Virus record (IMG/VR): IMGVR_UViG_3300011013_000009
Coordinates: 1 to 64,000 of that record
Strand: one strand, 5' to 3'
DNA: 64,000 bases
Source: a virus
The stretch's first letter is position 1, and every line of letters begins with the position of its first letter. Shown piece by piece: positions 3,038 to 10,012 of this stretch. The notes under the pieces were generated by a model that saw only the letters and a program-made list of their open reading frames with translations, did no database searches and was not told the DNA's origin. A program made the position numbers and the translations under genes.

Positions 3038-3159
3038 CACTGGCATGGATAATAATAAGTATAGCTAGTATAATAAGTATAATAGTATTCCCACCAATAG
3101 TATTAATAGCTATAGTAATATACGCTATATGGACATTATCAAGACATTATTATTTTTAG
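3001..3159 (+). CDS. small membrane protein (52 aa)
   Basis: By hand: MYRKRRRNKEELALAWIIISIASIISIIVFPPIVLIAIVIYAIWTLSRHYYF. Confidence 0.5.
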   Translation: MYRKRRRNKEELALAWIIISIASIISIIVFPPIVLIAIVIYAIWTLSRHYYF

Positions 3160-3845
3160 TCAATTTTTAGTCCATTTTTAGCTATTTCAGCAATGTATTT
3201 TTAGACCAAAGTACTTTTATTTTTAGAATGGTTTTTAGATTTAGTTACTACCAGGCGAAGAATAGGTGTGGTATGTAGTACGTTTACCTTCGGTCCTTTC
3301 AGGCCCTTCGGCAACCCGTATAAGTTCAAGACGCGGATATAGGCATTCCAGGAGTATAAGTGTGTAGTATGGAGTAAAGAATGGATAAAGTCCCCTTTCT
3401 ACCGGTATACATTATTTTTAGGGGGCATATGCTCTTTATCTCAACACCAGGTAGGTCCGGCCACCAGGAATTATTTTTAGTCCATTATACGTGCTTTTAG
3501 AGTCATTTACTTTTAGGCGGAATGGTCGTTATTTTTAGTCCTATATTTAGATTTACTTTTAGACCAAATGCCTTTTACTTTTAGACCAGGAGGCCAGGAA
3601 AGACGGTTTTATTTTTAGTCCAATATAATGTATTTTTAGATGCGTATGTATATATGCGTGTATATATATAGTTATTTTTAGACGGATATGCTATGTATTT
3701 TTAGTTTAATATATAGTCTGGGTATTCTATTTTTAGGGCAATATCCGCACTTTTAGTGCAGATCTGTTCGGTTCTCTAGCTATACGGAGTAAATTATTTT
3801 TAGAAGATCATTAGGATTTATGGATTTTTATTCTTATATTTAGAG
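3150..3845 (+). repeat. non-coding block of ~20 strand-biased (T)TTTTAG repeats; candidate origin or packaging region
   Basis: TTTTAG recurs every 10-60 nt, always in the same orientation; no ORF of 60 aa or more. Confidence 0.7.
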
Positions 3846-5440: not shown

Positions 5441-6022
5441 ATGGAAAAAAGAAATACGCCGGCGGGCAATACGTATTGGGATGAAAATGGAGCATACCAA
5501 AAAGAATTAAATGAACTATATAACAAACTAGTTCCGATGAGCGGCGATGCCGAAACAGTACATGGAGAATTAGTTAGAGCAGTAAATAGATTATATTACG
5601 AATATTGTAACAATGGGAATTGCAATGCTATTGTACAAGAATATGTCGAGCAGGAATATACATGTTATAATTGTGACGGTACTGGTAATAGAGATTATCA
5701 CGACCACGAGATTGATGAATGGGAGTCTGTAGAATGTGATGACTGTTATGGCGATGGCTATCAATATGAAGAAGAAGAAGGCGATCGTTATATGGATTCA
5801 TATTATGACAGAATGTTAGATTTCATAAGAGATCATGTTTCAAATTCCTATCCGGTAGTTGATGCATTGGAAAGATTTATATTAGATGGTCCTGGCTATT
5901 CGAATTATCAATTTAATGATGCTGAGTATGAGTATTACAATGATGTAGTAGATACTGTAATGCATTATGTATTGAATTCAGAGAATATACCTAATCCGGA
6001 ATATAAACCAGAAAAAGTTTAA
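5441..6022 (+). CDS. acidic protein with DnaJ-type zinc-finger motifs
   Basis: CYNCDGTG and CDDCYGDG (CxxCxGxG pair). Confidence 0.75.
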   Translation: MEKRNTPAGNTYWDENGAYQKELNELYNKLVPMSGDAETVHGELVRAVNRLYYEYCNNGNCNAIVQEYVEQEYTCYNCDGTGNRDYHDHEIDEWESVECDDCYGDGYQYEEEEGDRYMDSYYDRMLDFIRDHVSNSYPVVDALERFILDGPGYSNYQFNDAEYEYYNDVVDTVMHYVLNSENIPNPEYKPEKV

Positions 6023-6086
6023 AAAAGATTAGGATAATTGAAATATTATTCTTATATTTAAAGTATAATAATAAAAATTAAAAGAT

Positions 6087-6263
6087 ATGGGAAATTTTAA
6101 AAAATATTTAAAAAAAGAATTAGACAGGTTGATTAAAGACGCAGAAGAAATTTGGGAGTCAGAAATCAATCCGGATACAGGAGCTCAATTAACATATGAT
6201 GAGCTTCAAGAAGTAGATAGAGAATTAGAAAGATTATATAGGATGAAAAACAATCCTTTATAA
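6087..6263 (+). CDS. small hypothetical protein (58 aa)
   Basis: By hand MGNFKKYLKKELDRLIKDAEE...; follows promoter 6030 and AAAAGATATG leader. Confidence 0.7.
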   Translation: MGNFKKYLKKELDRLIKDAEEIWESEINPDTGAQLTYDELQEVDRELERLYRMKNNPL

Positions 6264-6264
6264 A

Positions 6265-6730
6265 AAAGCTTGCCATAGCTATTAAATTAGGCGTGGACCT
6301 TTATTGATATGTGATAGCTTCACATAGGTGTTGATCAACCGGTTAAAGTAATCCATGTAGGCAAGTAAATTGTGTAATAATCCAACTACGATAACTTCAT
6401 GGGGGATAGAGGTGAATATAGTGTAGCTTGAAAGATAGCACCCGAATAACTCTATTACACATAAATTTGATTACTACAGGAGAGATAGGTATCACCTTGT
6501 ATCCTGCGGAGGCTTATAATCTCACGTGCTGGAGGGGTAATCATTTAAATGCGTACACCCATGACAGAAGGGCGTAGTTCAATTGCACCTGCCGCTAAGC
6601 AGGAAGATACAATAGCAAAACCTCTGAATATTCTGTCAGGTATTATAAGTGGGCCTTGGAGTCAGGACTCCCAGACTGAGTAGGTTAGTTTTTCATATCT
6701 CTTGCCTACCATATGTGGCCCACTTTATTT
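6265..6730 (+). ncRNA. putative large structured non-coding RNA (~460 nt), family not recognised
   Basis: ORF-free and GC-elevated; nested stems 6268-74/6360-66, 6291-97/6352-58, 6308-14/6320-26, 6371-79/6453-61, 6468-74/6537-43, 6562-69/6631-38, 6588-92/6599-603, 6647-55/6717-25, 6658-63/6666-71, 6680-84/6705-09. Confidence 0.65.
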
Positions 6731-6826
6731 TTAGAATGATATGACACATTTATTTTTAGAATAATATATAGCTATTTTTAGAATGTATTTTTAGAATAAT
6801 ATTTAGTTTTAGATTTGGATTTTAGA
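6726..6826 (+). repeat. second cluster of TTTTAG repeats
   Basis: About 6 same-orientation copies directly after the structured element. Confidence 0.6.
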
Positions 6827-6874
6827 AATAGATTTATTATATTATAGTATATTAACCATAAAAAGAAAGACCAA

Positions 6875-7156
6875 ATGGCAAAAACAAAAAGAACACCAGA
6901 ATTTCAATTCGGAATTGAATTGACAAGACCGTGGAGTCCAGAAATGTACTCACACAATGATCAAGTAAGAGAAGAAGCTCAGACAATTCTCAATGAAATG
7001 ATTGACAACGGAACAGTAACTGTTAACGGGACTGATATCAGAACCGAAGATACACTTACAAAACAAACCGTAGCTGATCTAAAATATTGGCAATTGGATA
7101 AGTTACACAAAGAACTTAACCTACCATTAACAGTAGGCTTTGTGGGATATAATTAA
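6875..7156 (+). CDS. hypothetical protein, paralog of 7913..8281
   Basis: Shared FQxGIExTxPWSxEMYxHNDxV and C-terminal GFVG. Confidence 0.8.
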   Translation: MAKTKRTPEFQFGIELTRPWSPEMYSHNDQVREEAQTILNEMIDNGTVTVNGTDIRTEDTLTKQTVADLKYWQLDKLHKELNLPLTVGFVGYN

Positions 7157-9436: not shown

Positions 9437-10012
9437 ATGAAAGAATACAAATATTATGATAGAGTATTAGCGCTGGCTACATTAGCACACGACGATCAGA
9501 AAAGAAAATATTCTGATGAGATGTATATAACACATCCGATTGCTGTAGCAAAGATATTAGATGATACTTTCGAAGTTCCTGAAGATCTTATCTATGCAGC
9601 ATTATTACATGATGTGATAGAAGACACTACCGTTACTAGATCGATGTTAACAATTCAGTTAATGATGATCTTTAACGACCAGAAATTAGCCTATAGGGTA
9701 GTTAACCTAGTAACAGAACTAACCGATGTATACACCAGTGAAGCATATCCAGGTTTTAATAGAAGGCAACGAAAGCTATTAGAGCATGACAGGATAGCTA
9801 GAATTAGTGATGAAGCAAAGTTAATTAAGTTAGCAGACCTTATCCACAACACCAAGTCTATTGTCGAAGAAGATCCGTCTTTTGCGAAAGTGTATCTTAA
9901 AGAGAAAGACCATATGTTAAAGGAAATGATGGATGCACGAAAATCTGACACGTTTACTTTGGAATTTGTCCAGCTATATGAATTAGCAAAACATCATAAT
10001 AAAGTTTCATAA
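9437..10012 (+). CDS. HD-domain protein, RelA/SpoT-hydrolase (Mesh1/SAH)-like (p)ppGpp hydrolase
   Basis: AHxxQKRK, YITHPIAVA, AALLHDVIEDT, V..LT, IKLADLIHN motifs. Confidence 0.85.
   Translation: MKEYKYYDRVLALATLAHDDQKRKYSDEMYITHPIAVAKILDDTFEVPEDLIYAALLHDVIEDTTVTRSMLTIQLMMIFNDQKLAYRVVNLVTELTDVYTSEAYPGFNRRQRKLLEHDRIARISDEAKLIKLADLIHNTKSIVEEDPSFAKVYLKEKDHMLKEMMDARKSDTFTLEFVQLYELAKHHNKVS

Follow-up and report, generated by a model that had tools for sequence, protein, structure and literature searches.

Separable hairpin modules make up a gene-free early region in an uncultured marine T4-like phage

We have analysed a gene-free region at positions 6265-6735 of the first 64,000 nucleotides (hereafter the window) of IMG/VR virus record IMGVR_UViG_3300011013_000009, an uncultured marine T4-like phage, and find that it is a chain of five hairpin-closed modules gained and lost independently among close relatives, not one fold. 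Modules M3 and M4 are the constant core of this chain. A preliminary description, made from the window sequence, had taken positions 6265-6730 for one multi-domain, pseudoknotted non-coding RNA of ~460 nt; the gene-free region is real and has no Rfam family, but it is not a single giant RNA. On the evidence assembled here we lean towards reading it as the non-coding 3' part of an early transcript, composed of five separable modules with M3 and M4 as their core. The modules, all on the plus strand, are as follows.

6265-6368 (+): M1, a branched hairpin domain of ~100 nt, closed by CUUGCC (6269-74) and GGCAAG (6360-65)
6369-6464 (+): M2a, an optional hairpin domain, closed by TGTGTAATA (6371-79) and TATTACACA (6453-61), which form inverted repeat I22
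6465-6546 (+): M2b, an optional hairpin domain, closed by TTGATTAC (6468-75) and GTAATCA (6537-43)
6547-6640 (+): M3, a member of the motif whose parts are given below
6641-6735 (+): M4, a predicted branched intrinsic terminator

Seven syntenic metagenome contigs were compared with the window by BLAST and alignment, and contigs of four sequencing runs were aligned to positions 5900-7000 (L-numbered loci are metagenome contigs, G005 and G007 are IMG/VR records, and X2 and X16 are sequencing runs). M1 to M4 are complete in L036 and L048. In L035 and L074 the 58-codon gene that precedes the region is present with M1, M3 and M4, these modules being retained at 94-98% identity, and ~172 nt (6377-6548), amounting to all of M2, are gone. 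L050, L053 and L067 have another upstream gene followed directly by M3-M4, with M1 and M2 absent. M2a alone is skipped (92-93 nt; joints 6371>6464 and 6367>6461) in run contigs from X16, an RNA library, and X2, a DNA library, and M3 alone with a U-run occurs in another phage lineage, that of record G005 (loci L007/L071). Five natural forms are found: M1-M2a-M2b-M3-M4, M1-M2b-M3-M4, M1-M3-M4, M3-M4 and M3 alone. None of the seven syntenic relatives lacks M3 or M4. Compared with the window, M1 is 95-100% identical, M3 95-96% and M4 91-100%, against 57-96% for the flanking genes, where the 57% figure belongs to a gene cut off by a contig end. By this comparison of sequences, M1, M3 and M4 are at least as constrained as most of the surrounding coding sequence.

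Much of what the preliminary description had noted about the region itself holds. No open reading frame (ORF) of at least 50 aa occurs in any frame across 6264-6874, and stops of mixed types break all six frames there, so recoding does not account for the gap. G+C content is 35-46% per module over 6265-6735, compared with 30.7% for the 64-kb window, and the ~5 domains described match the five hairpin-closed modules seen in the minimum free energy (MFE) fold and the list of inverted repeats. The promoter placed near 6030 corresponds to a promoter-like cassette, TTAGGA-18-TATATT, at 6029-6058, and the T-rich end is a 9-bp G+C-rich stem (6647-55 / 6717-25) followed by a T-tract. ARAGORN finds no transfer RNA (tRNA) or transfer-messenger RNA (tmRNA) in the window, as had been said, and the reported lack of an RNase P or intron signature, and of an assignable family, agrees with Rfam. 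At gathering thresholds the whole window had no match to models that included GOLLD, ROOL, group I and II introns, RNase P, tmRNA, 6S RNA, riboswitches and self-cleaving ribozymes, and at E<=10 positions 6000-6900 had two chance-level matches only, both outside the modules. What survives of the proposal is a structured non-coding RNA on the sense strand, behind an early promoter, with a terminator at its end and no catalogued family; its single unit does not.

Folding better than dinucleotide-shuffled controls and covarying homologues, the marks by which the preliminary description had proposed to judge its RNA, are divided among the modules. The whole 466 nt of the plus strand fold no better than shuffles (-121.9 versus -119.0 +/- 5.5 kcal/mol, z -0.53, 34/100), and the central 178 nt, M2 as a whole, have a fold z of +0.25. 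M1 (z -3.16) and M4 (z -2.37) alone fold better than their shuffles, with M2a at -0.59, M2b at -0.64 and M3 at -1.28. Compensatory changes are found in M3 and M4; the carriers of M2 are 100% identical to one another, and M1 is without compensatory change.

M1 has an MFE of -29.8 kcal/mol (0/200 shuffles) and is 95-100% identical in L036, L048, L035 and L074, contigs in which the identity of flanking gene 5441-6022 is 76-96%. It was seen only alongside the 58-codon gene, and a pattern scan for further copies found none; M1 is probably an accessory element travelling with that gene. M2b occurs only in the window, L036 and L048, is 100% identical among them and is absent from L035 and L074, and a pattern scan of IMG/VR found no copy elsewhere. 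Two words in M2a, AACTACG and TCATGGG, have their complements in the 5' flank of M3. We infer that both M2 modules are insertions specific to particular lineages.

M3, as judged from its sequence relatives, is a member of a widespread marine-phage RNA motif that has no Rfam family. Its parts in the window, again on the plus strand, are listed here.

6563-69 / 6631-37: outer stem X, which closes the element in the window
6570-82 and 6619-30: conserved loop strands
6583-86 (UUGC) / 6615-18 (GCAA): helix H, 4 bp
6588-92 / 6599-603: inner hairpin Y
6604-14: conserved 11-nt bulge AAGAUACAAUA

Read from 5' to 3', M3 runs through the 5' strand of X, a loop strand that has UCAA at its end, UUGC, one purine, Y, AAGAUACAAUA, GCAA, a strand that begins AACCUC, and the 3' strand of X. 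The core of the motif comprises a helix closed by GG/CC, the 11-nt bulge, the 4-bp GCAA/UUGC helix and the loop AACCUC / UCAA. Homologues were collected by exact-pattern scans with two conserved blocks. A divergent run contig retained only 6571-6631, and a conserved 19-mer from this part led to IMG/VR record G005, in which an M3 equivalent of ~90 nt follows a different small gene and has a U-run directly 3'. Scanning with the second block added two further IMG/VR contigs as well as 45 true metagenome loci, which include the seven syntenic relatives. All collected copies share an identical 21-nt block, AAGAUACAAUAGCAAAACCUC, an invariance that is partly search bias, as the scans demanded 17-19 nt of it.

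The copies fall into three topologies and occupy ~15 gene contexts. Type B (the window and G005 lineages) has X as its closing stem and Y as the hairpin within. In type A (~10 contexts) Y is the closing helix and lies a few bases past a stop codon, with a U-run and then the next gene 3'; in L031 and L047 this form starts directly after the early promoter cassette. The M3 motif in other phages is the body of a predicted intercistronic terminator hairpin. The two-unit form (L033/L068 and L034) has two units opposed within one hairpin. M3 is single-copy in the records examined.

Support for the helices comes from changes that keep them paired. In an alignment of seven distinct type-B sequences, 16 pairs hold at 100%, with changes on both sides in 5, whereas slid controls give 31-50%. 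Pairing in helix Y survives ~10 sequence versions, including GCAGG/CCUGC, GGUAGG/CCUACC, GGAGG/CCUCC, AACAGGGG/CCCCUGUU, UAGAGGAG/CUCCUCUA and GGGAAGG/CCUUCCC; the type-A copy in L064 has an A·A mismatch in this helix. The closing helix of type A was read directly, because its register shifts by one base among copies and RNAalifold missed it. G-U pairs occur on the plus strand only and no A-C pair occurs among the seven type-B sequences, which argues for selection on the sense RNA and not on the DNA. Additionally, the two-unit forms combine one unit having GCAA and UUAC with another having GUAA and UUGC, in an order reversed between L033 and L034. Both 4-bp helices are perfect only with pairing across units, which implies a compensatory C-G to U-A change and a pseudo-twofold structure.

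The distribution of the motif has clear bounds. Rfam gave no match to type-A and two-unit copies, and M3 is absent from 50,697 cultured-phage records, where BLAST queries of 701, 55 and 84 nt returned chance matches only. Among 185,579 bacterial and archaeal genomes (one per species) the 19-mer has two matches, both coding. A type-B covariance model found no new copies in 15 viral records, only weak matches to known type-A elements, and a full-text literature search for the motif sequences found no relevant paper. Diverse genes flank M3, namely small unknown ORFs, of which a recurring one carries the motif W-K-K-W-N-x-K-C-H-P-E-D, tRNA genes and a MoxR/CbbQ-like AAA+ gene. Thus, there is no association with a gene class of the riboswitch type. 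M3 has highly conserved unpaired nucleotides framed by covarying helices, as do riboswitch and ribozyme classes. No antisense target of at least 11 nt for the M3 loops was found in the window.

Two other roles for parts of M3 were considered and rejected. The resemblance of GUAGUUCAAUUG to a tRNA D-arm or T-loop extends to a D-arm look in type B only and is not kept in type A. AACCUC as an antiterminator competing with the closing helix does not agree with its being fixed while the helix sequence changes. Additionally, a mini-ORF at 6549-6683 with the reading MR(T/I)P(M/L)... starts at a conserved AATGCGTAYACC at 6549, 5' of type-B M3; three lineages have it at 44, 17 and 16 codons, type-A copies have none, and it is probably not coding. 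Conserved GCGUA words lie at 6551-55 and 6572-76. The two-unit elements at L033:3894-3983 (-) and in L068 follow a MoxR/CbbQ-like AAA+ gene, and tRNA-Arg(TCT) and tRNA-Lys(TTT) lie 3' of them, at 5 nt in L033 and ~26 nt in L068, followed by an ORF with a weak GIY-YIG match. Processing of the tRNA by RNase P would free the two-unit M3 as a separate RNA.

M4 closes the chain, and its predicted structure has these parts.

6647-55 / 6717-25: outer stem of 9 bp with 5 G-C pairs, followed by UUUAUUUUU
6658-62 / 6667-71: hairpin 1
6680-85 / 6704-09: hairpin 2
6689-6703 (+): hairpin-2 loop UUUUUCAUAUCUCUU, an exact antisense match to AAGAGAUAUGAAAAA, the start region that the early genes share

M4 has an MFE of -29.0 kcal/mol (3/200 shuffles). 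Folding of an alignment of five distinct M3-M4 sequences reveals compensatory pairs in both hairpins, U-A to A-U at 6662/6667 and U-A to C-G at 6681/6708. A G+C-rich stem followed by a U-tract, as in intrinsic terminators, is found in M4, and a U-run also follows the closing stem of type-A and G005-type M3. A consensus scan for terminators had a loop limit of 8 nt, so the M4 and M3 hairpins are unlisted in it. M4 is single-copy in the 77-kb record. Pattern scans for it gave 44 matches, all coding and spurious, and a 23-mer from hairpin 1 had no match.

Each of the small early genes at 4.3-14.3 kb is headed by a cassette consisting of a promoter ending in TATATT, a leader of ~25 nt and a start box, AAGAGATATGAAA. 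The hairpin-2 loop of M4 is the exact reverse complement of AAGAGATATGAAAAA (15/15). At two mismatches or fewer the start-box pattern has 17 sites in the window, compared with 1.8 expected, and 14 of these are gene starts; the only site on the minus strand is the M4 loop. The loop matches gene starts at 15/15 in four cases and at 14/15 in four more, and the match ends exactly at the edges of the box without extending into the shared leader. In the predicted fold the loop has a mean unpaired probability of 0.85, and predicted duplexes between it and the eight start regions reach -19.8 to -23.0 kcal/mol. The M4 loop thus combines complementarity beyond chance with predicted accessibility, as looked for in a trans-acting antisense small RNA (sRNA). 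All M4 carriers retain the loop, with one U fewer in L050/L053/L067. M4-bearing contigs are rich in start boxes; in G005 and G007, which have M3 without M4, the box is at background level. A different phage with the same start box (L030) has an 11-nt antisense, TTCATATCTCT, that is single-stranded and lies right after a stop codon, just 5' of a simple terminator; from its sequence this arrangement (L030:3724-3770) has the layout of a seed plus a terminator.

We infer functions for M3 and M4 from the modularity, the conservation relative to neighbouring genes, the compensatory pairs in both modules, the sense-strand G-U pairs and the antisense match. An early transcript would start behind 6029-58, encode a 58-residue protein and end at the U-tract of the M4 terminator, such that a series of stacked RNA cassettes at 6265-6735 would form its 3' untranslated part. 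Pairing through the M4 loop, this terminated transcript or a fragment from its 3' end would bind early messenger RNAs (mRNAs) at -7 to +8 and block ribosome loading on them. M4 would then be the RNA counterpart of a class-wide translational repressor, and its sequence suggests that it probably represses early-gene translation in trans. M3 is probably a terminator or 3'-end module that a protein or a ligand recognises; candidate roles are protein docking, regulated termination, processing and stabilisation. A further-reaching proposal is that M3 is a new functional RNA class (a terminator-embedded sensor or protein dock, possibly riboswitch-like or a ribozyme, its two-unit form hinting at a dimeric or symmetric partner) and M4 an RNA class-wide repressor of early genes, jointly forming a cassette in the 3' untranslated region (UTR) of a kind undescribed for T4-like phages. 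We put this forward tentatively and would sooner expect some part of it to fail.

Several observations weigh against these assignments. The compensatory changes in type-B M3 and in M4 stem from two or three lineages only and represent few independent events, and the invariance of the M3 block is open to the search bias described above. M1 has no compensatory changes, and a variant, 6270 T>C, disrupts its closing stem. The full 466 nt are not unusually stable. The M4 loop and its target box are invariant among M4 carriers, hence no covariation of loop with target is shown, and an inverted copy of the start cassette could have left the loop behind as a remnant. Contigs from RNA libraries cover parts of the region, but assembled contigs carry no information on strand, ends or level, and RNA libraries can contain DNA. 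For a shut-off factor an early promoter would also be oddly timed, unless the factor acts by accumulating.

Among other explanations, that of a single folded unit of ~460 nt, a new family of pseudoknotted multi-domain RNA resembling GOLLD or ROOL, now appears improbable. The region is a contiguous ORF-free and GC-elevated block bounded by a promoter and a terminator, it matches no known family, and like GOLLD and ROOL it is a sizeable gene-free phage stretch with many predicted helices. It also has an excess of 7-mer inverted repeats (27 versus 10.7 +/- 4.0 in composition-matched shuffles) and a 9-bp match between M1 and M4, GTAGGCAAG / CTTGCCTAC. The complementary words behind the two proposed pseudoknots are where they were reported, AACTACG 6384-90 with CGTAGTT 6573-79 and CATGGG 6398-403 with CCCATG 6558-63, and as a colinear 7+7 pair this M2a-M3 complementarity was reached in just 1/200 shuffles. 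However, the modules are distributed differently among syntenic relatives: M2 is lost in L035/L074, M2a alone in two runs, and M1 with M2 in L050/L053/L067, and M3 is solitary elsewhere. The domain bearing the M2a arms is naturally missing, so the pseudoknots cannot be essential; all M2 carriers are identical, and no long-range pair has covariation to support it. The fold of the whole region and that of M2 do not exceed shuffles, and the M1-M4 match is equalled by 24/500 of them. GOLLD and ROOL gave no covariance-model match, and unlike a unit of their kind the stretch is not conserved as a whole and its modules occur separately. Even less credible is an origin from decayed protein genes or a mobile element (a homing endonuclease gene, an intron or an insertion-sequence-associated guide RNA), to which the deviating GC, short ORFs of 31-49 codons and the mini-ORF at 6549 could be attributed. 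ORFs of the region have no Pfam match even at E<=1, the mini-ORF is unstable in length and missing in type A, no intron or other Rfam model matches, and no transposase, TnpB or reverse transcriptase lies nearby. Conservation above that of the flanking genes is the opposite of decay.

The main rival to a regulatory reading of M3 and M4 is recombination of DNA cassettes of the promoter-early stem-loop (PeSL) type with generic terminator function, which we regard as unlikely but worth serious attention. PeSLs have been reported as terminator/promoter composites mediating indels in T4-like phages (PMC2839356; PMC4122927). On this explanation the hairpins would be ordinary terminators, conserved promoter and terminator cassettes would act as crossover points in gene shuffling, the modules would have built up through illegitimate recombination, the M4 loop would be the remnant of an inverted cassette, and there would be no role in trans. 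It accounts well for the mosaic distribution. The early genes share a stereotyped promoter-leader-start cassette, and among sequencing-run contigs the 6012-6057 cassette runs on into many different flanks, as expected for PeSL-like recombination cassettes. Borders of indels coincide with borders of modules, and near-identical M3 elements stand between unrelated genes in ~15 contexts. The 58-codon gene of L036 has only 76% identity with that of the window, while the promoter cassette upstream of it and M1, M2 and M4 downstream are at 98-100% and M3 at 96%, a pattern that reads as a sign of cassette-bounded recombination. The region also resembles PeSLs in being set between small early genes, within a variable part of a T4-like genome, in the order of a stem-loop terminator (M4, 6647-6735) and then an early promoter (6811-6843), which relatives keep, in being conserved above most flanking genes, and in its position at the borders of indels and replacements (deletions in L035/L074, gene replacement in L053, the divergent 58-codon gene in L036). 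PeSLs have many dispersed, near-identical copies within one genome; M1-M4 are single-copy in a 77-kb record that covers only 46% of the genome, and the promoter-leader-start part occurs ~14 times. A plain terminator needs neither a conserved bulge and loop of 21 nt nor a preserved 4-bp inner helix. The stems vary with compensation, the unpaired parts are fixed and G-U pairs are confined to the sense strand, which together argue for selection on the RNA itself. The hairpin presenting the antisense loop stays paired through a double change, and the antisense match covers the start box exactly without the adjoining leader. The long sequence-conserved bulge and loop, inner helix and three topologies of M3, in phages with differing flanking genes, and the antisense loop of M4 set the modules apart, and the description of PeSLs contains none of these special features.

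Interpreted as a regulatory 3' region, M3 and M4 can be compared with several known systems. Small RNAs that pair through a loop or seed with ribosome-binding regions include c4 RNA of phages P1 and P7 and anti-Shine-Dalgarno RNAs of the RsaE type, and CpxQ and SdhX are sRNAs from 3' UTRs. M4 is similar in having a loop, predicted to be accessible, that is fully complementary to the start region of a class of mRNAs, and in lying at the 3' end of an mRNA and sharing its terminator. It differs in its target, a 15-nt A/U-rich box including the AUG rather than a Shine-Dalgarno sequence, and in being known from sequence alone. In T4 the RegA protein represses many early mRNAs at their start regions; here, in contrast, the repressor would be an RNA. 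Early mRNA of T7 has intercistronic hairpins that are processed by RNase III, leaving a protective 3' hairpin. Like these, M3 has a conserved asymmetric internal loop and lies between early genes of a polycistronic transcript, and by analogy a T7-type processing hairpin is a possible working model for it; there is no sequence likeness, however, and the helices of M3, at 4-8 bp, are well under a typical RNase III substrate. A survey of IMG/VR yielded 8,495 unnamed 'DNAVirus' structured-RNA models, 1,241 of which contain Rho-independent terminators (PMC10690425). By their description these models resemble M3 in data source and kind of object.

The 64-kb window is the first part of a 77-kb IMG/VR viral contig rated 46% complete, and it encodes T4-like genes for a baseplate wedge protein, an SbcC-like nuclease, the large terminase and the portal. 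Its terminase is nearest to that of Microcystis phage Mel-JY01 (56%) and then to those of Flavobacterium phages (52%), and the region is present in seawater and marine metagenome runs from many studies. Small early genes on the same strand occupy 4.3-14.3 kb. Features of this part of the window are as follows.

4307, 4788, 5106, 5434, 7561, 8354, 9430, 10303, 11677, 11907, 12231, 12260, 13639 and 14300: the 14 early-gene starts with the cassette
6026-6058 (+): early promoter cassette upstream of the RNA region, TTAGGA at 6029-34, an 18-nt spacer and TATATT at 6053-58
6087-6263 (+): early ORF of 58 codons, of which the RNA modules would be the 3' UTR
6726-6797 (+): four TATTTTTAGAAT boxes, the first of which is also the terminator U-tract; the number of boxes differs among relatives
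6811-6843 (+): next early promoter cassette, TTTGGA-18-TATATT, for gene 6875-7156, kept in all relatives

The sequence at 6026-6058 is promoter-like and would drive both the 58-codon ORF and the RNA region; 6811-6843 is its direct repeat, D4. The 58-codon gene, the product of which has no Pfam or PHROG match, is conserved at 92% in L035 and L074; another gene stands in its place in L050/L053/L067. The 193-aa early protein encoded at 5441-6022 has weak matches of the CXXC zinc-finger type (Anti-TRAP and DnaJ CXXCXGXG), both under the Pfam cut-offs. Four distant IMG/VR contigs encode relatives of it (33-39% identity), none with similar DNA or a similar RNA region. A 93-aa flanking protein has no relatives in IMG/VR, and a protein database gave only four clusters, at an identity of at least 84%. 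The early gene at 9437-10012 has an HD_4 / HD domain (RelA/SpoT-type hydrolase fold, E 3e-12), and its product may, on this match, be a phage (p)ppGpp hydrolase. Boxes of the form TATTTTTAGAC also lie 3' of type-A M3 in L032, L044, L058 and L066. An ORF-poor stretch of ~660 nt at 3150-3810 holds 15 TTTTTAG boxes on the same strand (consensus TATTTTTAGA), alternating with GC-richer segments; this array could serve protein binding, act as a set of promoters or mark an origin, and positions 3236-3415 in it fold no better than shuffles (z +1.13).

An island of this kind in a phage early region, gene-free and rich in GC, can consist of stacked cassettes that are independent of one another, and scoring it as one giant RNA would be a mistake. 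Early shut-off in T4 relies on proteins such as RegA and RegB. If the proposed role of M4 is true, one small antisense loop would silence an entire temporal class of genes in a T4-like phage. M3 is compact and combines extreme sequence conservation with covarying helices, and motifs with such a signature have often proved to bind a ligand or a protein. M3 may also offer a handle on the organisation of early transcription units in uncultured marine phages.

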